NCBI GenBank assembly: GCA_043811635.1
Contig: JBDRNB010000016.1
Coordinates: 1 to 28,370 of the forward strand
DNA from: Candidatus Aenigmatarchaeota archaeon
GTDB lineage: Archaea; Aenigmatarchaeota; Aenigmatarchaeia; QMZP01
Length of the DNA stretch: 28,370 nucleotides
Direction of reading: 5' to 3'
The notes below the pieces were generated by a model. That model was given only the letters and a program-made list of their open reading frames with translations, was not told the DNA's origin and ran no database searches. The position numbers and the translations under genes were made by a program. Of this stretch, positions 17,204 to 28,370 are shown piece by piece (position 1 is the stretch's first letter; every line of letters begins with the position of its first letter).

Positions 17204-18241
17204 ATGGATACAGGAATTGTAAGTTACGGGGCATATATACCCAGGCTTCGCATTTCAGTAGAGGAGATAGCGCGGGTCTGGGGAGAGGATCATAACAACA
17301 TAAAGAACGGCCTTAGAATAGAGGAAAAGAGCGTTCCAGAAATGGATGAGGACACAATAACACTAAGCGTTGAGGCTGGAAAGAACGCTTTGTTAATGGC
17401 AGGAGTAGATCCAAAGAAGATAGGAGCCCTGTTCATAGGGTCAGAATCACACCCTTATGTTGTTAAGCCATCTGGAACAGTGGTTGCAGATGCTCTTGAT
17501 ATCGGTCCTGATCTAATGGTTGCAGATTTCGAGTTTGCCTGCAAGGCAGGAACCGCTGCAATACAATGCTGCTACGGCCTTGTGAAATCAGAACAGATAG
17601 AATATGGGATGGCCATAGGAGGGGACACCTCACAGGGAAGGCCAGGCGATGCCTTAGAGTATACTGCATCAGCAGGAGCAGCAGCATTCATAATAGGAAA
17701 AGATCCCATAGCGACATTAGATAACATGTATTCATACACGACAGATACAAGCGATTTCTGGAGAAGGGAAGGAGAAGCCTACCCGCGGCACGGCGCAAGG
17801 TTCACAGGAAAGCCAGCATATTTTTTGCATGTTTTAAAGGCCACTAAAACCCTGCTTGAAAGGACATCTATGCAGCCAAAGGACTTCAAGTATGCGGTTT
17901 TTCATATGCCTAATGGAAAGTTTCCAGAAACAGCAGCCAAGAAACTTGGATTCACAAAAGAGCAGATAGAACCAGGCCTGGTTGTGAAGAGGATTGGAAA
18001 CACCTATTCAGGCTCTAGCCTCCTTGGCCTGGCAGCTATTCTGGATATAGCAAGCCCAGGAGACAAGATACTTGTCACATCATATGGCTCAGGTGCAGGC
18101 TCTGACTCATTCTGCTTCACAATAACAGACAAGATCACCTCATCACGTGGCAAGACCCCACGAATAGAGGATTACATAAAGGACAAGCAGAACATAGATT
18201 ACGGAACATATGCAAGACTCAGGGGGAAGTTAAAAGGATAG
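17204..18241 (+). CDS. mvaS: Hydroxymethylglutaryl-CoA synthase, archaeal type
   Basis: [10 protein letters not shown], catalytic [46 protein letters not shown]. Confidence 0.96.
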
Positions 18242-18242
18242 T

Positions 18243-18551
18243 ATGGACAGACAGATGGACACAAGGGTAACGGATTATGTTAAAAAACAGATAGGCTGGA
18301 ACCCTCGAAATGGAGAAATAACTTTACATTGTTATGAAGATTCACTTATTGTAAATATTCATAAAAATGATGCGGTAGGATCTTTTTCATTCAATACTGG
18401 TAATAGGTATTTAACACCTTTTGAAAAAAGAAGATTCCTTTATTCACAGATAACACCATTCAGGGAAGAGTTCGGACCAAATATAATACATCTGGTTTTA
18501 GATGGAGAAATTTTTGATGAAGTAGATTATGGAAGGAGATTTGGAAGATGA
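18243..18551 (+). CDS. Hypothetical 102-aa protein inserted between HMG-CoA synthase and thiolase
   Basis: Starts 1 nt after the HMGCS stop; its TGA overlaps the thiolase ATG (ATGA); AT-richer codons; no motif recognised. Confidence 0.7.
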   Translation: MDRQMDTRVTDYVKKQIGWNPRNGEITLHCYEDSLIVNIHKNDAVGSFSFNTGNRYLTPFEKRRFLYSQITPFREEFGPNIIHLVLDGEIFDEVDYGRRFGR

Positions 18552-19699
18552 AAAGAGTAGCTGTTGTTGGCGTTGGTATGACAAAGCAGGATGAGCACTG
18601 GGACAAATCCATCAGGGACTTGTCCATGGAAGCTGGAGCCTCAGCTTTGCGTGATGCTAAACTAGAAGGAAAGGACATACAGGCCCTATATATTGGAAAC
18701 ATGTCCGCAGGCAGGTTTGTTGGACAAGAACATCTTGCCGTACTGGCAGCAGATCAAGCAGGCCTGCTTCCAATACCTGCAACAAGATGCGAGGCAGCTT
18801 GTGCCTCAGGATCCCTGGCATTCAGAAAGGCATATTTGTCCATACTGTCAGGAGAGTATGACATTGTCATGGTTGGCGGAACAGAGAAGATGACTGACAT
18901 AAAGGGAACAGGAGCAATAGCAGCTCTGATGGGAGCTGGTGATAGTGAATGGGAATCGTCCATAGGACTCACATTCACTGGCCTGTATGCAATGATGGCC
19001 AGGGCATATATGAACAAATACGGCCTTACAAGAGATGAGTTGTCCTTGGTTCCTGTGAAAAACCATAAACACGGCCTAAATAATCCATATGCTCAATTCA
19101 ACTACGAAGTTACAATAGAGCAGGTTTTGAAATCTGCTCTGATAGCAGATCCTTTGAGATTACTTGATTGTTCTCCAATAACAGATGGATCTGCTGCACT
19201 GATACTTGCATCAGAAGATGTGGCAAAGAGATTCGAGAATCCAGCTTGGATTCTGGGTTCAGGTCATGCAAGCGATACACTGGCACTGCATAATAGAAAG
19301 AGCATCACAGAGATCGTATCAAGCCAGATAGCAGCAAGAAATGCGTATGAAAAAGCAGGGCTTAGACCTGAAGACATAGATGTGGCAGAGGTTCATGATT
19401 GCTTTAGCATAGAAGAGATAATTGCATATGAAGATCTGGGATTTGCAGAGAGAGGTAAAGGTAAGGATCTCTTGATAAACAAAGAAGTGGAAGTCGGAGG
19501 AAGAATACCAGTCAACCCAGATGGCGGACTGAAGCTGGGACATCCTGTCGGTGCGACAGGAATAAAGCAGATCATAGAAATAACAAGACAGCTTAGAGGA
19601 GACGCCTTCAATCAGGTAAAGGATGCAAGGATAGGACTCACTCATAATATAGGAGGAACCGGAGCAACAGCCATTGTTCACATATTCGGTAAGGAGTAG
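18548..19699 (+). CDS. Acetyl-CoA C-acetyltransferase (archaeal thiolase)
   Basis: EAACASG (catalytic Cys), GTEKM, KNH, CSPITDG, EVHDCF, GHPVGATG, HNIGG. Confidence 0.95.
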   Translation: MKRVAVVGVGMTKQDEHWDKSIRDLSMEAGASALRDAKLEGKDIQALYIGNMSAGRFVGQEHLAVLAADQAGLLPIPATRCEAACASGSLAFRKAYLSILSGEYDIVMVGGTEKMTDIKGTGAIAALMGAGDSEWESSIGLTFTGLYAMMARAYMNKYGLTRDELSLVPVKNHKHGLNNPYAQFNYEVTIEQVLKSALIADPLRLLDCSPITDGSAALILASEDVAKRFENPAWILGSGHASDTLALHNRKSITEIVSSQIAARNAYEKAGLRPEDIDVAEVHDCFSIEEIIAYEDLGFAERGKGKDLLINKEVEVGGRIPVNPDGGLKLGHPVGATGIKQIIEITRQLRGDAFNQVKDARIGLTHNIGGTGATAIVHIFGKE

Positions 19700-19701
19700 A
19701 T

Positions 19702-20106
19702 ATGCCTGGTAGATCATCTGTTCCAATGTTCTGGAGACTGAAGAAAGCCAAATATGGATTAGTTGGAACAAAGTGCGTCAATTGCAGTTCTCTTTATTTT
19801 CCACCAAGACCCCTATGTTCAGAATGTAGAAGCAAAGGAAAGATGGAGGACTTTCAGTTTTCAGGAGAAGGAGAGATAACATCCTTTACAATTATAAGAG
19901 TTGCCCCAGAAGGATTTGAGGCCTACACACCATTTGCAGTTGGAATGATAAAACTAATAGAAGGACCAAATGTTGAAGGACAGATTGTAGGTAATGTGCA
20001 GAATGTTGAGGTTGGAAAAAAGGTAAAAACAGTCTTCAGAAAGATGCACGAAGACAATCCAGACGGCTTGATATACTACGGTTTGAAGTGGAAGATCGTT
20101 GATTAA
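19702..20106 (+). CDS. DUF35 Zn-ribbon/OB-fold scaffold protein
   Basis: CVNC...PPR..CSEC rubredoxin-like knuckle, G.ITSFT, VG.KV...FRK; canonical position after the thiolase. Confidence 0.95.
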   Translation: MPGRSSVPMFWRLKKAKYGLVGTKCVNCSSLYFPPRPLCSECRSKGKMEDFQFSGEGEITSFTIIRVAPEGFEAYTPFAVGMIKLIEGPNVEGQIVGNVQNVEVGKKVKTVFRKMHEDNPDGLIYYGLKWKIVD

Positions 20107-20158
20107 GGTAAATTGCCCATATAATTAGGTAATATAGTAACAAAAATTGTCTCAAGTC

Positions 20159-20180
20159 GTCGGCCGACTATTTTTATATA
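20159..20180 (+). promoter_or_regulatory. Perfect palindrome GTCGGCCGAC directly upstream of the TATA box (TTTTTATATA) of minD
   Basis: 10-bp palindrome at 20159-20168; TATA at 20171-20180. Confidence 0.55.
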
Positions 20181-20239
20181 CTAAATCCAATAAAAACATG
20201 TAATATTTGGATCAGCCAAATTTAGATAAGGGAATATAT

Positions 20240-20977
20240 ATGAAAAAGGTAATTGGTGTTTTCTCTGGAAAGGGAGGAGTCGGGAAAACAGTGTGCGCCC
20301 TTAACATCGGCTTAGCAATCCATGAGTTTGGTGACAAGATTGTCCTGATGGATTGTGACTTGAAACATCCAAACATGGCCTTGCATTTGGGACTGCACGA
20401 TTTCCACACAACTGTGCAAGATGTGTTAGAAAGAAGAATAAGTCCTCTGGAAGCAATTAGCATTCATAATTCAGGATTGAGATTCATACCAGGCTCCATA
20501 GCGCTTAGAAACTTTGAGTACGACAACAAATATTTCAAGGAATCTCTCGATGACATAAACAATCTAGTTTTATTCGACGGGCCATCAGGTTCAGAAGGAA
20601 ATGCACTTGCCTTGCTAGAGATATGCGATGAGATCATTATTGTTACAAGTCCAGACATACCGGCTGTCACAGATGCAATGAAGATTATACAGATTGCAAA
20701 TGATATGGACAAGAGATCAATAAGCATGATAATAAACCGGGTTCAGAAAAAACACGAACTGGATATAAAACATATAGAGGATGCATGCAAGGTTCCAATA
20801 CTAGGAATAGTGCCAGATGACAAGAATGTTAAAAGAGGATTGCACCAGAGGCTTCCTGTTACTTTGTACAAGCCCTTTTCAAACTCATCCATAGAGTTCA
20901 GAAGGATTGGAGCTGCAGTGGTTGGAAGGAATTATTCACCGCCAAGATTCTACAGAATAAGAAGACTATTCCATTGA
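20240..20977 (+). CDS. minD: MinD/ParA-family ATPase
   Basis: Deviant Walker A GKGGVGKT, MDCDL, DGPSG, VTSPD, INRV, VPDD; basic amphipathic C-terminus FYRIRRLFH. ATG 20240 preferred over TTG 20207. Confidence 0.9.
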   Translation: MKKVIGVFSGKGGVGKTVCALNIGLAIHEFGDKIVLMDCDLKHPNMALHLGLHDFHTTVQDVLERRISPLEAISIHNSGLRFIPGSIALRNFEYDNKYFKESLDDINNLVLFDGPSGSEGNALALLEICDEIIIVTSPDIPAVTDAMKIIQIANDMDKRSISMIINRVQKKHELDIKHIEDACKVPILGIVPDDKNVKRGLHQRLPVTLYKPFSNSSIEFRRIGAAVVGRNYSPPRFYRIRRLFH

Positions 20978-21409
20978 TTCTTCAGAATGAACATTAACAA
21001 TAGACTTACCAATATCTCCTTCTAGCATGTAGAATCTGTTTCTACCAACCTTAACACCCTTCACAATGCTCTCTAGCTCAAGCTCCCGTAGATACTCGTT
21101 TGCGCGAACCCTTGAAAGGTCAATAAGCTTTGCAAGTTGAACAGGTCCAAGCTTCTTATGCTTCTTGAGAAGGTTTATAATTTCTCTTTTTGTTCTTATC
21201 TTCTTAGGGCTCTCTCCCTTCTTCTTAATACCTACAACAAACTCCTTCAGCTCGTCAAACTTCTCGCTCAGGGCCTCAATGTCTGTGTGTATCCTATTCA
21301 TATACTCTACCCTGTTCTGAGGAAGACTAAGAGAGCTCTTTTCTATAGCATGCTTTATCTCAAGCAGCGTGACCAAATCCGTTTTCTTGGCAGAATTTTC
21401 CTTTCCCAT
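20966..21409 (-). CDS. Coiled-coil plus C-terminal winged-HTH protein (putative transcription regulator)
   Basis: REIINLLKKHKKLGPVQLAKLIDLSRVRANEYLRELELESIV...GRNRFY; convergent 12-nt overlap with minD. Confidence 0.85.
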   Translation of the reverse strand: MGKENSAKKTDLVTLLEIKHAIEKSSLSLPQNRVEYMNRIHTDIEALSEKFDELKEFVVGIKKKGESPKKIRTKREIINLLKKHKKLGPVQLAKLIDLSRVRANEYLRELELESIVKGVKVGRNRFYMLEGDIGKSIVNVHSEESME

Positions 21410-21420
21410 AATGATACATA

Positions 21421-21453
21421 TATGTTCGTCGACAGATTTAAATTAATGTCGAC
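21421..21453 (-). promoter_or_regulatory. Promoter of the wHTH gene: TTTAAAT TATA flanked by the inverted repeat GTCGACA-N12-TGTCGAC, with downstream element TCGACGAACATA
   Basis: GTCGACA at 21428-21434 and TGTCGAC at 21447-21453; the TATA lies about 27-33 nt from ATG 21409. Confidence 0.7.
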
Positions 21454-21593
21454 TTGTCAAGAACTTCTCCTCTATTATCTTATTTTTACATTCTTTATAA
21501 GATTACTCCATTCGTGAAAAGGCTTCAAATCATTTCTCAGATCAAATAAACTTATTAGGAACAATAGTGAACTAAAAGAAGACTTCTAAGGTC

Positions 21594-21609
21594 TTTTCAG
21601 GCCTGAAAA
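21594..21609. promoter_or_regulatory. Perfect 16-bp palindrome TTTTCAGGCCTGAAAA
   Basis: Read directly; 12 nt upstream of the TTATAT box of the surface-protein operon. Confidence 0.6.
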
Positions 21610-21621
21610 ATCCCTCAAAGA

Positions 21622-21642
21622 TTATATCCTTCGACGAATATA
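21622..21642 (+). promoter_or_regulatory. Promoter of the surface-protein operon: TTATAT followed by TCGACGAATATA
   Basis: Same TATA-to-element spacing as in the divergent wHTH promoter; 11/12 match of the element. Confidence 0.65.
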
Positions 21643-21665
21643 CAGTTGTTTAAGGCGCGCTATAT

Positions 21666-22568
21666 ATGAGGGTTGCTAATATAGATAGTTCTCGTGGAAT
21701 GAAGAGTAGTTTGAGGAGTAATTCCAAGTTATTCAGCCTATTTCTTGTCGTTCTCATGCTACTTATGGCAACCCCCATAACTATTATCATTGCACAACAT
21801 ACAGATTTCAACGAATCTTTTTCTTCAATCACAGGGAATGTCGGACAGCCAAAAACCCTCATAGAATCTCAGAATTCTACTGACACGTCACCTGATCAGA
21901 TGCAAGAGCTTCAACCTCCATTTGAGCAGCCAGAGAATGAAACCGAGAATGTTGAATTACCAGAAAGCCCATCTCAAGGGGAAAATGAGACAGAGCCAGA
22001 AAACACTACAATAGAAATACCAGAAAACATAACACAACCAGAAAATGAGACACAAGCGAACATAACCATAGAACTACCAGAAAACGAGACAGAGCCGATT
22101 AATGAGACAATCAACGATACAGAAACACCAATAGAAAACATAACCATAGAATTGCCAGAAAACGAGACATACGAAAACGTAACAATAGAAACACCAGAAA
22201 ACGAAACGCAACCAGAAAACGATACAGAAACACCGGGAATACCAGAACCAGTTATACCGCCAAAGATAGCGAGACCGATACCAGATTTCCCTGCACTTGC
22301 TGTTGGTATAGATTCACAAGACAAGATCACAAGAGGAGAGTCATTCACAGCTACATCAATTGTTACCAACAGCGGTTTAGGGGATGCAGAGAACGTGATA
22401 ATAACGTGGGACCTTCCACAGGGGTTCTCAATACTGAGTGGTTTTGAAGAGCATGGCTGTGGTGAGATACAACCGAACTCTTTCTGTGAATCAATTATAG
22501 AGGTGTTTGTTTCCTTGGATGCAGACCTTGGAAAGTCTAAGTTAAGAGTAAGGGTGAGCTATGAGTAA
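21666..22568 (+). CDS. Secreted protein with an N-glycosylation sequon-rich P/E/N/T linker and a C-terminal Ig/CARDB-like domain
   Basis: Basic n-region and hydrophobic h-region ending IIIA-Q; PENET/NITIE repeats; C-terminal beta-sandwich pattern (VTNSG.GDA.NV.ITW.LP.G). Alternative start ATG 21699. Confidence 0.85.
   Translation: MRVANIDSSRGMKSSLRSNSKLFSLFLVVLMLLMATPITIIIAQHTDFNESFSSITGNVGQPKTLIESQNSTDTSPDQMQELQPPFEQPENETENVELPESPSQGENETEPENTTIEIPENITQPENETQANITIELPENETEPINETINDTETPIENITIELPENETYENVTIETPENETQPENDTETPGIPEPVIPPKIARPIPDFPALAVGIDSQDKITRGESFTATSIVTNSGLGDAENVIITWDLPQGFSILSGFEEHGCGEIQPNSFCESIIEVFVSLDADLGKSKLRVRVSYE
21930..22235 (+). repeat. Degenerate coding repeats PENET / NITIE(L/I)P (14 N-x-T sequons in 102 aa)
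   Basis: Recurrent ccagaaaa(c/t)gagaca and aacataaccatagaa units; sequons counted from the translation. Confidence 0.9.
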
Positions 22569-25500
22569 GGAAAAATCACAGGCACATATCTTCGAGCTCT
22601 TCCTACTCACCTTTTTCTTTCTGCAAGCTGGACTGCTAGCGTTTTTAGGCATTTACGGCCTTGTTTTCCTTGGCATCACAGGATCTGGATTCGCAATTTC
22701 AAAGAGACTGAAGAGCTCACACACAGCACAAGCAGAGATGCTTGTTGCAATTGTGTTCCTCGCCCTGATATCCACTGTTGCCATAGCACAGACAGTTAAT
22801 CAGACATTCACCAATGATAGTATTACAGGCCTGAATATAGGAAAGGATCTTAATAGAATTGTATACAAAACCAAGGACATCGAGGTCTGGGCAAACACAG
22901 AGATTATTCTAGACATCAACGAGACAAATGACACATTCATAGGAAAAGCACAGCTAGTTCTTGACAATGGCGACCCACTATCTAGTGAGATTATCAAGAT
23001 CTATCTAAATGGTGAGAAGAGACTGGTTCAGGACACAGACGAATATGGGGCAATCGAATTCATTCTGCAAAAGCAGAGCGGCCTGAACGTGATAAGGGCT
23101 GTATTCGATGGAAATCCAGATGCCTATTACAATCCATCAGTGGACGAGTTCATATCAGGGATACCGGAAAACGAGACAGAGCCCGTGAATGAAACAGAAC
23201 CTGTGAACGAGACAGAGCCAATTAACATCACAAAACCAATAAATGAGACCATTAACGAAACATATATCATCAGCATCGAGAGCATAGATGTTCCAAAAGT
23301 CATAAACGAGAGCTTTGAGATCGGCGTGAATATACTTTCCAATTTCAACACATCAGCCACAGTCTCAATCAACCTCTCAATTCAGACATACGAAGAAGAT
23401 ATTATACTTGTAGAGGATATACTAACACAAACAACATTCGAGTTCCAGCCAATAGAATGCGGAAAGTATGTAGGTCAGATCCTTGTTGAGAGTGAAAATG
23501 CAAATGATTATGATGAATTCACTGCTGTCGCAGCATGTGAGATAAATGACACCAATATAACAGGGAATCTAACAAATCTCACAATAACAGATCTTGGTTT
23601 AATCCAGGGCGAAGCCAAAATCAACCAGCTTGTTCCATGGTACAAGACGATTGAGGTATTCAATCCAAATGATGTTGAAGTGGAGGACATAGAGATTGAG
23701 GTTGAGCTTCCAGAGTCAGCTGAAGACATCAAAATAAAGAGGATACCCAAAAGCAACAAAATAGCGAGTGCTGTTGCCATTGAGATCAAGGAAGGAAAGC
23801 TGAAGGACAAGATCAAGGCAAAAGAGAAGGAGAAATATCAGATTGAGTTCTACACAGCTGCTCCAGAAAAAGTAGAGCAGGAAACACCTGAGGGGAAGAT
23901 AGTAACAATATCACATAATGAAGAATTGCATTACACGAATGTTGAAGCAAGTATTCCAATACCTGAAATAGAAAGCGAAATAGAGATAAAGAACAAGGAA
24001 TCATTTGCAGGAGATGAGATACCAGTTTTTGACATCTATACAGGAGAACAGACAGACATCTTCTGGGTGGGAGGAAGCACTGAATTGTTTGAAGATATAA
24101 CCCGGGTAACCTATGATGATGCTCATCAAGCAAGATATGAAGATTCTGATGGTAATGGGATTAATGATTTGTTTGTTTGGAATGTGCCAACATTGTCCAA
24201 TCAGACATACCTGATAAACAAGACAAACGAGATAAACATAACAATTAAGATAACAGATCTGAATGGAAACGATCCTGGAATTGAATACGATGTTCAAAAC
24301 AGAGAATATGGCTACTCTTTGAGCCTAGCTAAGAGGGGATTCAAACCAGGGACCTACAAATTGATAGTAGAAAAAAATAATATCTCCTTAGAAAAGCAAT
24401 TCACTTGGGGACTTATTTCAGTTAATACATTGGCAATATCGTGCCAAAAATGCACACTTGGAAAATCAATTTTCTACCCAGAAGAAATACTAAAAATTGG
24501 AATGATTGTATTGAATGAAAATGGAACGCCATCTGCAGGTATGGATGTCTTGTTAACAGTGACAGATCCTGATAATAAGTCATACACATTCTGGACAGGA
24601 AATAATACAATCACAGAGGGTAAAAGAGGAGAATACTTTGCAGAATTCGAAACAACAGTTGAAGGAACATACACAATGTCTGCAAAAACACTCCTTCTCG
24701 GGCATGAGGTTAGCATAGACTCATACTTCCTTGTTCAAGAATCTTATGACTTCGAGATATTGAGAGACACTGTAATGACATTGGATCCAAGATTCGATGA
24801 ATTTGAAACCACATTCTATATATATCCTAACATAGATGGCGTGGATGAGTTCACAGTAATAGAGCATCTTCCAAGTGACTTCAGCATAGTATCGACCAAC
24901 AACGCAACAATAATAGAAAACGAAACTGAGATCTTGCTCATCTGGGAAAACATCACAGAAGATATAGATGCATCCTATTCAGCACAAATACCATGGAACT
25001 GGCCTTGGCTGTACAGAGTTGGTAAAGTTGAAATAATTTATGATACCCCGACAGGCACACATTCATATGAAGAGGGGAGGGAATGGCTGTTGGCAGTTGA
25101 CCCTGCGGATGATATAGGTTTGATAGCATATGGAACCACTATAGACAACGCGCCAAGATACAGGTTCTGGAATGGAGACGAATGGAGTGGCGAGGCGAGC
25201 GCGAATGATGTTGGTGGAGAGATAAGATGGACGCATGTAAGGAGTTCGCCTAAATTCTATGAAGAATTCATAATCGGCACTGCAGATGATGCTGGGGACA
25301 TCAATCTACAGACATATAACGGAACAGGATTTGATCAGCTCACAGAAGTGGAAACAGAATCACCAACAACAAATAGATCATTTGACGTGGAGTATGAACA
25401 ATTATCAGGACAGGCAATGGTCGTCTATTCAGACGGAACACCAATACCAAAATACAGAATTATGGAAAGGGGAACCCGCGTCTGGGAATCTGAATCCTCT

Positions 25501-28370
25501 GTACCACAGACACTAACAACAAGCCCGGTTGCACATATAGAAGTGGTAGAAGATCCGAATTCAGATCAGCTTGCTGTGTTCTGGACAGACTCGGATCCAG
25601 CTTTAAGCTTCATTATATGGAATGGAACAGAATGGCTCTGCGAGCCTTCAGTTCCTATATCAGCTTCTGTTTTTTCAAACGATTTCAAACAATTTGATGC
25701 TGCATTCGAGAACTCAGGCGATCTTGTTGTATTATTTGATAATTCAGCTGAGAGTGATGGCAACCTAGAGCATGCAGAAATTGATACAAGCGATTGCAGC
25801 GTCACTTACGGAGAAGTTGCAACGTGGCTTGATGATGGAGATCAAATCGATATTTCAGCAAAGCCAGGAGAGGATATAATACTAGGAGCACAGAGAGACG
25901 CACCCGCTGATGACATTCATGCCGGTGCATGGGACGGTGATACATGGGCTGTTTTTTCAGCTTCAGATGGAGGAACAGAGACGGATGAAGTCAACAGCCA
26001 CATGTATGTCGCAACTGGCTGGGTCGGAACGTCTGACATAGGTATGTTTGCATATGCAGACGCCAATGTTGTAACAGTCAGATATTTCCACTACAATTCA
26101 TCAGATAGCACATTTGATGCTGCCGTAGGCACTTGGACTTCAGGAACACCAGGAACAACAGATTTCGAAAACATAAGAATGATTGGAGGTGGAGAGACAG
26201 CTGAAGAATTGCTGTACATACTTGTTGACAATGCAAATGACATCTGGGTTAAGAAATACAACCAGACACATGGATGGCAGGATACAGAAGGCGGAGCAGC
26301 ATTAACTACGGTGGGAAGCGCTGACGGAGATTACATGCTTGTTGATTTCGCCTACAAGAGTGTACAAACAGATGATATGACTGTGTTGGATATTGTTCCT
26401 CTTGTAAAGGGAGTTCCTACAACAGATATTTCAGAAGGATCAAATGTAAGCTTTAATGTAACTTTAAGGGAGGAGGCTGGCACAGGTCTAAATCCAGTCA
26501 ATGTAACACTGACCATATACGATTCTAGTTTCAATCTGGTGTACAACGAATCTGTATATAATCTGAATTATGAAGCTGATGTCCAAATGGATGCAAATCT
26601 AACGAACCTGAGCACAACAGGTCTTTCAGGCTCCTTCAATGCAACTGCTTATGTATATTGGAATGGGGGAAATAACAACAGAACTGAACACAAATCATTC
26701 AATATACGAACAATATCTATCAATCCATCATATCCTGTTGGTCAGTGCCTAAACATGCCATTTGTGATGAATGTGACACTTTCTAATAATTGGCCTGTGG
26801 AAATTATAGCAAATGTCACAGCCTATGAGGACTCTGACTTTGGGTTTACACCAGAAGTAAGGGTTGTTAGAATACCATCATTCTCAAGCAACATGACAAA
26901 CTTCTCTTTAACAACACCTTCTGCAGGACAGGATTATGTATTGAATATTTCTGTAAACTATACAAATGGCAATGGTGATTTCAAGGTAAGAAATGGTTCT
27001 TTGACATTCAAGATTCCTGGCCCTCTGATAAAGATAACAAGAGAATCTCCGTCAAAGGTGGGCACCACTACAGCAATATACCCAAGATTTGTCATACATA
27101 ACTATGGTTGCGAGATTGCGGAAAACATACAGTTCAATGAGACTGTGAACCCAAGTTTCAGTGTAGATTCTGCTTATACATTTGGTCAGGGGGCAATAAA
27201 CATTACGACCCTGTCAGATTCCTCTACTAGAATCGTATGGAACATATCACGACTCGCGATAAACGAATTCTTCATAGTAGATTACAAGTTATCATCCACA
27301 TCAACTACCACAGGCAACCTGGGAAAATGGCAGAGTATGTGGTACGACACAAGTTCAAATGAATTTACATCTGAGGAAGATGAACAGTGGTCACTATATT
27401 CTGAGTCAAGCGCCATATCTCATTTCGAATTTAATCTCACTGTTGGTAATGCGTCATTTGACAGAATAGTAAAACCAAACAAGACATATGTATACAATCT
27501 AACTGTGAAAAACACAGGTAAAGCAACAGCAACTACATATGGAACAAACATAACAATCCAGGTATTTAAAAGACTCAAGGACTATCTGAACCAGAACTGG
27601 TCATTAGATGATACCTGTGACTTATATGATGCAGGCACTGGAGATTGGGATTCATCTGAACATACAATAAACTGGACTCTTCCCGAGAATCTAGTTGTAG
27701 GAGCTGAAACTTACCTGTACTTCACTCTGAACTGTTCCAGAAACGACACAGAAATCAAAATAAAAGCAACTGCAACAAACTTTGATGTGCCTACAACAGG
27801 AGCCACGGAGTACTGCGATGCTACAACTTATAGCGCTGACGGTTCAAACACAGAGGACTGGAACCATACTTTCACAAAGCCTGCAGGAATGCCAGACAGC
27901 GGCTATGTTACATACACAAAACTCTCAGGCGGTGCTGCAACATCAGCCACTTGTTTAGGAAATTCAGGCAACTGGGATAATACAGACTGGGGTAGAGCTG
28001 AGTTATATAATGATACTGTCACAGGAAAATATACTGCATGGTATTACCATAACCCCCCTGATATAGGTATTGGAAGTCCGCTTATCTATGAAGCAACATC
28101 CCCTGACGACTTCAACGGAAGCCAATACAAGACAGTTGCAAACAATCTCACCCTTAGAATGACAGGTAACAGAGCTCCAGGTGAATGGTTATGTGTTGTA
28201 GAAGTTTGTTACAAGTGGGCATGGCTTGCAGATCAACAGGAAACCCAGGAGCTATTTGTAAAGGTCAGGGACAATAATCCGGCTAAAATACAAAACGACA
28301 CACTCATGGCGGATTTTGACTGGGGCCAGTTATTTAATTTCACAGTCCAGGTTTATGACGAGAATGGTGA
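22561..28370 (+). CDS. Giant cell-surface glycoprotein (>=1936 aa, 3' end outside the window); not in the ORF track
   Basis: Frame +1 translated by hand from ATG 22561 to the window end without a stop. N-terminal hydrophobic segments, abundant N-x-S/T, DSDGNG Ca-binding-like loop, KSIFYPEE macroglobulin-MG2-like segment, W(N/D)GxxW repeats, Ig-like repeats. The start overlaps the upstream stop (ATGAGTAA). Confidence 0.92.
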   Translation, partial: MSKEKSQAHIFELFLLTFFFLQAGLLAFLGIYGLVFLGITGSGFAISKRLKSSHTAQAEMLVAIVFLALISTVAIAQTVNQTFTNDSITGLNIGKDLNRIVYKTKDIEVWANTEIILDINETNDTFIGKAQLVLDNGDPLSSEIIKIYLNGEKRLVQDTDEYGAIEFILQKQSGLNVIRAVFDGNPDAYYNPSVDEFISGIPENETEPVNETEPVNETEPINITKPINETINETYIISIESIDVPKVINESFEIGVNILSNFNTSATVSINLSIQTYEEDIILVEDILTQTTFEFQPIECGKYVGQILVESENANDYDEFTAVAACEINDTNITGNLTNLTITDLGLIQGEAKINQLVPWYKTIEVFNPNDVEVEDIEIEVELPESAEDIKIKRIPKSNKIASAVAIEIKEGKLKDKIKAKEKEKYQIEFYTAAPEKVEQETPEGKIVTISHNEELHYTNVEASIPIPEIESEIEIKNKESFAGDEIPVFDIYTGEQTDIFWVGGSTELFEDITRVTYDDAHQARYEDSDGNGINDLFVWNVPTLSNQTYLINKTNEINITIKITDLNGNDPGIEYDVQNREYGYSLSLAKRGFKPGTYKLIVEKNNISLEKQFTWGLISVNTLAISCQKCTLGKSIFYPEEILKIGMIVLNENGTPSAGMDVLLTVTDPDNKSYTFWTGNNTITEGKRGEYFAEFETTVEGTYTMSAKTLLLGHEVSIDSYFLVQESYDFEILRDTVMTLDPRFDEFETTFYIYPNIDGVDEFTVIEHLPSDFSIVSTNNATIIENETEILLIWENITEDIDASYSAQIPWNWPWLYRVGKVEIIYDTPTGTHSYEEGREWLLAVDPADDIGLIAYGTTIDNAPRYRFWNGDEWSGEASANDVGGEIRWTHVRSSPKFYEEFIIGTADDAGDINLQTYNGTGFDQLTEVETESPTTNRSFDVEYEQLSGQAMVVYSDGTPIPKYRIMERGTRVWESESSVPQTLTTSPVAHIEVVEDPNSDQLAVFWTDSDPALSFIIWNGTEWLCEPSVPISASVFSNDFKQFDAAFENSGDLVVLFDNSAESDGNLEHAEIDTSDCSVTYGEVATWLDDGDQIDISAKPGEDIILGAQRDAPADDIHAGAWDGDTWAVFSASDGGTETDEVNSHMYVATGWVGTSDIGMFAYADANVVTVRYFHYNSSDSTFDAAVGTWTSGTPGTTDFENIRMIGGGETAEELLYILVDNANDIWVKKYNQTHGWQDTEGGAALTTVGSADGDYMLVDFAYKSVQTDDMTVLDIVPLVKGVPTTDISEGSNVSFNVTLREEAGTGLNPVNVTLTIYDSSFNLVYNESVYNLNYEADVQMDANLTNLSTTGLSGSFNATAYVYWNGGNNNRTEHKSFNIRTISINPSYPVGQCLNMPFVMNVTLSNNWPVEIIANVTAYEDSDFGFTPEVRVVRIPSFSSNMTNFSLTTPSAGQDYVLNISVNYTNGNGDFKVRNGSLTFKIPGPLIKITRESPSKVGTTTAIYPRFVIHNYGCEIAENIQFNETVNPSFSVDSAYTFGQGAINITTLSDSSTRIVWNISRLAINEFFIVDYKLSSTSTTTGNLGKWQSMWYDTSSNEFTSEEDEQWSLYSESSAISHFEFNLTVGNASFDRIVKPNKTYVYNLTVKNTGKATATTYGTNITIQVFKRLKDYLNQNWSLDDTCDLYDAGTGDWDSSEHTINWTLPENLVVGAETYLYFTLNCSRNDTEIKIKATATNFDVPTTGATEYCDATTYSADGSNTEDWNHTFTKPAGMPDSGYVTYTKLSGGAATSATCLGNSGNWDNTDWGRAELYNDTVTGKYTAWYYHNPPDIGIGSPLIYEATSPDDFNGSQYKTVANNLTLRMTGNRAPGEWLCVVEVCYKWAWLADQQETQELFVKVRDNNPAKIQNDTLMADFDWGQLFNFTVQVYDENG
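23164..23262 (+). repeat. NETEP(V/I) coding repeats in the giant protein (6 sequons in 33 aa), similar to the repeats of the upstream gene
   Basis: PENETEPVNETEPVNETEPINITKPINETINET; shares gaaaacgagacagagcc with the upstream gene near 22080. Confidence 0.9.

Follow-up and report, generated by a model that had tools for sequence, protein, structure and literature searches.

Two transcription units that diverge from one intergenic spacer in the window, meaning here the whole 28,370-nucleotide stretch of Candidatus Aenigmatarchaeota DNA under analysis, carry a similar short sequence beside their TATA boxes. One of them encodes a small winged helix-turn-helix (wHTH) protein, P0001, and the other a set of large surface proteins. 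The question raised by this locus is whether the shared sequence is an operator through which P0001 controls both units. On the sequence evidence assembled below, P0001 probably autoregulates and co-regulates the surface operon through TCGAC(A) sites. The window belongs to a metagenome-assembled genome (MAG) of 821,894 bases in 117 contigs (G000), and the genes concerned are the following.

20240 to 20977, plus strand: archaeal MinD-type ATPase gene, minD (NCBIfam minD_arch, 1.2e-48, below the family cutoff)
20966 to 21409, minus strand: wHTH gene encoding P0001, 147 aa (open reading frame and translation)
21666 to 22568, plus strand: surface operon gene 1, encoding P0002 (alternative start ATG at 21699)
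22561 to 28368, plus strand: giant surface protein with an MG2 domain, more than 1936 aa, open at the 3' side at the window end (open reading frame and domain search)

P0002 consists of a membrane or signal helix, a linker rich in N-x-T sequons and a C-terminal NPCBM_assoc/DUF11-like domain, and the reading frame of the giant protein overlaps it by 8 nt. The surface operon is divergent from the wHTH gene across an intergenic spacer of 256 bp, compared with 100-165 bp in most relatives. The minD gene is convergent with the wHTH gene and overlaps its 3' end; its likely start is the ATG at 20240, and the start MKKVIGVFSGKGGVGKT agrees with relatives. Directly upstream of minD, positions 17204-20106 hold in a row genes for an HMG-CoA synthase-like protein, a thiolase and a DUF35/OB-fold (ChsH2-type) protein, which constitute the archaeal acetoacetyl-CoA/HMG-CoA trio, with a small unassigned reading frame between the first two; the same trio also stands ahead of minD in three related loci (L013, L016, L018). 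All six runs listed as containing the window stretch are DNA, from groundwater or biofilm metagenomes in three studies, no RNA run being among them; contigs from four runs over 21200-21900 are all identical to the window and thus carry no variation that could serve as a footprint. An Rfam scan of 20100-21750 returned no meaningful RNA element.

An earlier sequence-only reading of the window had described the two promoters as sharing a TATA box and a downstream element, and the strings that it gave for them, on the minus strand at 21446-21421 and on the plus strand at 21617-21642, are indeed located there. A promoter matrix trained on the leaderless genes of the MAG renders both TATA assignments plausible, with scores of 9.2 for the wHTH gene and 5.5 for the surface operon. 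TATA-like hexamers in this genome peak sharply at -29 from the start codons, and the genome consequently appears to use mostly leaderless mRNAs. The resulting promoter elements and candidate operators are these.

21421 to 21433, minus strand: O1, candidate operator GTCGACGAACATA between the TATA box and the wHTH start codon (sequence, uniqueness)
21436 to 21442, minus strand: TATA box TTTAAAT of the wHTH promoter (promoter matrix)
21447 to 21453, minus strand: O2, candidate operator GTCGACA just upstream of the TATA box, in the BRE position (inverted repeat)
21621 to 21627, plus strand: candidate TATA box ATTATAT of the surface operon, preceded by purine-rich AAAG (promoter matrix)
21630 to 21642, plus strand: O3, candidate operator TTCGACGAATATA, 2 nt past the candidate TATA box (sequence; nTCGACA in relatives)

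At the wHTH promoter, the minus-strand score of TTTAAA (21437-21442) exceeds the training median of 7.8, and the hexamer starts at -33 from the ATG, the genome-wide mode being -29. From the matrix-scored TATA box and the leaderless spacing, O1 lies between the box and the start of a leaderless or near-leaderless mRNA, placed 2-6 nt ahead of the ATG; with the TATA box (21436-21442) on one side and the ATG (21409) on the other, it occupies the position typical of archaeal repressor sites, which is also that of GTCGA(N)CGACAAT in relatives. The second half-site TGTCGAC, which had been noticed on the other side of the wHTH TATA box, is present as a perfect GTCGACA-N12-TGTCGAC (21428-21434 / 21447-21453), O2 thus being the inverted partner of 21428-21434, with perfect 7-nt arms and a 12-nt spacer. 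Because the box is palindromic, TTTAAA scores 8.7 on the plus strand as well. A GTCGAC arm is found downstream of it in each direction, and the box could serve as a bidirectional promoter, with one transcript running rightward through the 200-bp spacer.

At the surface operon, the TATA box is only a moderate match. TTATAT at 21622, with its 5.5 against the training median of 7.8, stands at the 19th percentile of the training promoters and above the 99th percentile of the background; other TATA-like sequences are found nearby, and it outscores the two such candidates near the surface gene (21637, 21661). A leader of approximately 15 nt is predicted for the surface operon from this box, and O3 lies downstream of the TATA box only if TTATAT at 21622 is the one in use.

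The two promoter sites stand out from the rest of the genome. In the window, TCGACGAAYATA with at most one mismatch matches only at 21421-21432 on the minus strand and at 21631-21642 on the plus strand; the chance expectation is 0.09, and two matches were reached in 0 of 100 shuffles. A repeat search recovers the two promoter segments as an inverted pair with arms of 21 nt, which are 81% complementary and separated by 180 nt. The genome scan that had been suggested for the shared motif, run on the 821,894-base MAG, finds TCGACGAAYATA at the two promoters only, the full TTAWATCNNTCGACGAA pattern gives the same two matches only, and the four remaining TCGACGAA octamers all lie inside coding sequence. 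Furthermore, GTCGAC occurs at 18 sites in the MAG, about seven-fold fewer than the approximately 128 expected from base composition, and two of these 18 stand 20 bp apart, flanking the wHTH TATA box.

Such a resemblance could also arise as a by-product of local duplication, or by chance in AT-rich DNA, and would then carry no regulatory meaning. Duplication within the spacer is visible at 21499-21514, a degenerate direct copy, 75% identical, of the surface-promoter segment 21618-21633, located 119 bp upstream of it; judging from this copy, the divergent promoters may have been moved apart by a duplication, and the spacer does exceed the length seen in most relatives. Against this explanation, the 12-mer is CG-rich and unique in a genome that is depleted in GTCGAC, and both the core and its TATA-adjacent placement are kept even in distant relatives, where the remaining intergenic DNA can no longer be aligned. 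Already contradicted by these comparative data, it is very improbable.

The comparative data comprise an order-level comparison of 27 wHTH loci and a phylum-wide scan of species-representative genomes, which provided 78 loci, 75 of them distinct. Homologues of the wHTH protein occur in 26 of the 61 genomes of the same order, this genome counted; in a genome of the same genus that is 80% complete (G001), neither the wHTH gene nor the window DNA was found. Most of the 78 scan loci are titled Candidatus Aenigmatarchaeota or uncultured archaeon, together with single Micrarchaeota and Thorarchaeota records. Over the 100 nt that precede the wHTH start, TCGAC/GTCGA is present at 21.6 per kb compared with 1.74 per kb elsewhere in the loci, a 12-fold enrichment that involves 67 of the 75 distinct loci, and control 5-mers of the same composition show no comparable enrichment (the next best reaching 22 vs 162); since kin are not independent, these statistics overstate the significance. 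The pattern extends over families that show no other alignable intergenic DNA.

The commonest form of the wHTH promoter is TTTAAATT-GTCGA(N)CGACAAT, followed by a leaderless ATG 14-17 nt after CGAC, with the TTTAAATT TATA box at -29, the leaderless distance. Among the 24 order-level loci having a CGAC core, the core is located 14-20 nt before the ATG in 23, and the paired GTCGA(N)CGACA form is present in 20. In other clades, GTCGA stands once or twice immediately ahead of the TATA box (L043 and L112-L115 have their site upstream of it), and in three loci arrays of 5-8 TCGAC sites extend across the intergenic region (L103, L111, L119). The divergent neighbour of the wHTH gene is a P0002 homologue in 46-48 of the 78 loci, and nearly all the homologous surface-gene promoters consist of a TATA-like stretch, N1-5 and TCGACA. 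The check that had been put forward, whether relatives retaining the genes also retain the motif, is thus passed: TCGAC-type sites beside both TATA boxes recur across Aenigmatarchaeota, and by this recurrence the two sites represent a single genuine cis-element linked to the wHTH gene.

The long consensus first proposed for the two promoters survives in part. Its TCGAC(A) portion is kept in relatives, and the rest is specific to this genome; with TCGAC(A) as the conserved core, the 12-mer is therefore a variant of this genome that is common to both sites. The base after TCGAC is G at both sites here and mostly A in relatives, and the two sites here agree at 7 of the next 11 positions, compared with 1-5 in 29 of 32 relatives. 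This extra identity fits the reading of both sites by one protein. Local duplication could partly account for it as well, given the degenerate copy at 21499-21514 and the unusually long spacer.

In the AlphaFold model of P0001 (pLDDT 80), a pair of long helices forms the N-terminal part and a winged helix the C-terminal part, and in the family alignment the recognition-helix signature LSRxRxxEYL is invariant. When variants of this helix (LSRVRANEYL in this clade, LSRTRCSEYL elsewhere) were compared by eye with operator variants, no clear pattern emerged. Pfam HTH_24 (PF13412) matches residues 72-117 with 21.4 bits (E 1.8e-4), just under the gathering cutoff of 21.9; P0001 resembles this wHTH type and falls short of curated membership. 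The ArsR/SmtB model NF033788 gives 23.6 bits, below its cutoff of 55. Membership of Lrp/AsnC was considered and rejected: the wHTH is C-terminal, the RAM (AsnC_trans_reg) domain is absent, and similarity to Lrp is confined to the HTH part (PDB E 0.03-0.06; NCBIfam 15.7 vs a cutoff of 233). The best Foldseek matches are wHTH proteins of the ArsR/SmtB/MarR type (CadC, SmtB, CzrA, AdcR; E 4e-5 to 1e-3) with modest TM-scores of 0.4-0.6, and the similarity of the model to the ArsR/SmtB fold appears generic. By its predicted fold, P0001 would be a DNA-binding wHTH protein of the ArsR/MarR type. It belongs to a new wHTH family, as yet without a name, that is nearly confined to Candidatus Aenigmatarchaeota.

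Whether P0001 is the protein that reads the sites must be weighed against the possibility that they are real operators bound by another factor, the wHTH gene being one target among others. The TCGAC core is short, binding by P0001 is a prediction, and Aenigmatarchaeota encode further small HTH proteins, and in many relatives the surface protein itself contains a second, fused HTH. Approximately 29 of 48 loci encode a surface protein of this kind, with a cytoplasmic wHTH domain at the N-terminus, before the membrane helix (L015, L027, L028, L052, L056, L069, L098 and L104 are among them), and in L015 this domain shares 37% identity over 57 aa with the wHTH of P0001. The fused HTH, however, goes with a different palindrome, TTGTACA-N-TGTACAA, which stands between the TCGACA site and the start codon. 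By exact pattern it is found in 21 of the 29 fused-HTH loci, with variants in several others, and in 0 of the 19 loci that lack the fusion. At the present locus the fused HTH and the TGTACA palindrome are both absent, while the TCGAC sites remain, and in the relatives a TCGAC site is present with and without the fused HTH.

Furthermore, throughout the phylum the TCGAC motif tracks the promoter of the P0001 family, even where no surface gene was detected beside the wHTH gene (L053, L054, L068, L090). A motif that follows a regulator's own promoter is the usual signature of autoregulation, and the presence of TCGAC at the own promoter across the P0001 family points to such control. Because TCGAC(A) is independent of the fused HTH and its TGTACA palindrome, and is present in loci without a surface-gene neighbour, it is assigned to the free wHTH protein. 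P0001 is consequently taken as the presumed binder of the sites, and a different binding factor seems unlikely. In many relatives, the surface protein with the fused wHTH is itself a candidate membrane-tethered autoregulator.

With P0001 as the putative binder, regulation at the locus can be pictured as follows. P0001 would recognise the TCGAC(A) core and bind GTCGACGAACATA at its own promoter, together with the inverted GTCGACA on the far side of the TATA box. Bracketing of the TATA box and BRE in this way would keep off RNA polymerase and/or TFB, resulting in negative autoregulation, which O2, in the BRE position, would reinforce. P0001 would also bind TTCGACGAATATA, 2 nt past the candidate TATA box of the operon encoding the sequon-rich membrane protein and the giant MG2-domain protein, and expression of the surface operon would thereby be tied to the level of P0001.

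The direction of these effects depends on site position. Archaeal regulators bound downstream of the TATA box block recruitment of RNA polymerase, and those bound upstream can activate (PMC4706686); the rule invoked by the sequence-only reading, that a repressor downstream of the TATA box blocks RNA polymerase, agrees with this source. By the positional rule of PMC4706686, O1 implies autorepression, and repression at the wHTH gene's own promoter follows firmly from the position of the site. Repression of the surface operon by P0001 is provisional: it is expected because O3 lies downstream of the TATA box, provided that the TATA at 21622 is the one used. In the closest relatives, a second TATA-like sequence, GCTATATA, is located 18-30 nt further downstream at the surface gene; if a downstream TATA of the GCTATATA type is a real promoter, O3 becomes an upstream site, and activation is possible. 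The regulatory interpretation given in the sequence-only reading is thus supported in part, by strong comparative evidence, its notion of a switch for the surface proteins being a suggestion.

A third related site may exist at the promoter of the neighbouring ATPase gene; neither this site nor the conserved link to MinD formed part of the sequence-only account of the two promoters.

20155 to 20169, no strand assigned: palindrome AGTCG-TCGGC-CGACT, possible third related site (sequence and operator matrix)

This palindrome is located 1 nt upstream of TTTTTATATA, the TATA box of the minD promoter. With 14.7 bits at 20157, it is the second-best match in the MAG to the relatives' wHTH operator matrix, and it resembles GTCGGCCGACA, the operator form in L017/L072. 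Of the 78 loci in the phylum-wide scan, 8 have minD behind the wHTH gene in one operon, and 5 have it convergent with that gene, as here. MinD is found beside the wHTH already in four order-level loci (L004, L006, L007, L025), and it is present in part of family f1.

These observations allow P0001 to be viewed chiefly as a site-specific DNA adaptor of a MinD/ParA-type ATPase, comparable to the centromere-binding proteins AspA, SegB and HpaB of ParA systems, with the TCGAC cluster as a positioning or segregation site that doubles as an operator, and with control of the surface operon as secondary or incidental. Archaea are known to possess small DNA-binding proteins that act as adaptors of ParA-type ATPases and contact the ATPase via the N-terminus (PMC13722703), and P0001 possesses a long helical N-terminus. 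The adjacency of the two genes, the related palindrome at the minD promoter and the arrays of TCGAC sites in some relatives are all consistent with such a role; AspA structures also occur among the Foldseek matches, though as generic wHTH matches at ranks 19 and 24. In addition, the predicted complex of MinD with the wHTH protein scores 0.51, compared with 0.00 for the best of three controls, with runs that agree on at least 57% of contacts and a partner pLDDT of at least 65. In the calibration of this score, 58 of 80 solved complexes attained the mark, as did 2 of 110 mismatched pairs, and the passes at or below 0.60 comprised 7 of the 80 solved complexes and both mismatches; according to the tool calibration, such weak passes are more often wrong than right, and as the complex was computed with custom alignments, the calibration counts hold only roughly.

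The distribution of minD speaks against the adaptor as the main function. A search out to 3 kb found no MinD homologue at 60 of the 78 loci, although these retain the TCGAC sites and the surface gene. In L013, L016 and L018, minD lies behind mevalonate-pathway genes and has its own TATA box without TCGAC. The ATPase is of the MinD type and not of the ParA type by NCBIfam, and this genome contains only three sites and no repeat array. Taken together, an adaptor role of P0001 is possible but secondary on present evidence, and as its chief function it is rather unlikely. Slightly less probable again is a dual-purpose P0001, which would bind its operators as an autoregulator and also bring the MinD-type ATPase to the TCGAC sites clustered in front of the surface operon. 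If this were true, positioning or segregation machinery would be linked to the expression or the site of synthesis of the giant surface proteins, which presumably serve DPANN cells in host attachment. The preferred reading of P0001 as an autoregulator that also controls the surface operon leaves minD as a further potential target.

Targets elsewhere were sought in the MAG with a TATA-then-TCGAC pattern and the relatives' operator matrix, and beyond the locus and the minD promoter, these scans gave coding or unconvincing matches. The best further candidate target (C41:291) was discarded, as no clear gene lies downstream. In five relatives' genomes, the composite GTCGA-N1-2-CGACA with a TATA box is found only at the wHTH locus, apart from one extra intergenic copy in G055. 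The latter, recorded with L029 (G055:C3:70301), is a second TATA box with GTCGACCGACA between two convergent genes, 4.6 kb from the wHTH locus, with no obvious reading frame downstream. The loose pattern TATA-N1-5-TCGACA is no commoner in the relatives' genomes, those without the wHTH included, than its reversed control; a regulon can therefore not be defined from the TCGAC core alone.

To our knowledge, nothing is known experimentally about gene regulation in Aenigmatarchaeota and most other DPANN archaea, and a literature search on regulators, MinD or surface-protein control in Aenigmatarchaeota found no paper. The present finding provides a concrete predicted regulator-operator pair that is kept across the phylum Aenigmatarchaeota, and marks the surface operon and perhaps minD as likely controlled together. 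The giant surface proteins of Aenigmatarchaeota and other DPANN archaea are prime candidates for host attachment. With this locus, a DPANN phylum has for the first time a regulatory module that can be tested directly, without the need for cultivation.

Among known archaeal regulators, MDR1, LrpA and Phr also act from sites downstream of the TATA box. The closest parallel to the proposed module is TrmBL1/Tgr of Thermococcales with its TGM motif, a sequence-specific wHTH regulator whose effect is set by the position of the site relative to BRE/TATA (PMC4706686). In terms of that scheme, O1 lies between the TATA box and the transcript start, O2 and the minD site at or upstream of the BRE, and O3 after the candidate TATA box. 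Unlike TrmBL1, P0001 has no Pfam TrmB match, and its domain order is reversed, with the helices first and the wHTH C-terminal. Its motif is the 5-6 nt TCGAC(A), tandem or inverted, whereas the TGM of TrmBL1 is TATCAC-N5-GTGATA. Moreover, in contrast to the global regulon of TrmBL1, the apparent regulon of P0001, as predicted from sequence alone, is local and includes its own gene, the divergent operon and perhaps minD.

Similarity is also evident to the ArsR/SmtB and MarR-type repressors, which give the best structural matches to the P0001 model; these are small, typically autoregulating proteins with operators that overlap their own promoters. The N-terminal pair of long helices in P0001, in contrast, is not the ArsR dimerisation layout. 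With AspA-ParB-ParA of pNOB8, SegAB, and HpaAB of Haloferax volcanii (PMC13722703), the locus shares a Walker ATPase of the MinD/ParA superfamily beside a small site-specific DNA-binding protein. In such segregation cassettes, palindromic sites upstream can double as an operator, and the N-terminal helix of the adaptor is thought to contact the ATPase (PMC13722703). The components differ, however: SegB and HpaB are of the ribbon-helix-helix type, AspA depends on ParB to bridge it to the ATPase, and the ATPase here is of the MinD type. The constant partner of P0001 is the surface-protein operon, which belongs to no known partition cassette, whereas MinD is found within 3 kb in 18 of the 78 loci. 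Mechanistically, autoregulation by a wHTH protein from an operator next to the TATA box is a textbook case in archaea, and consequently the value of the finding resides in a new family, a new motif and a biological target rather than in a new principle.
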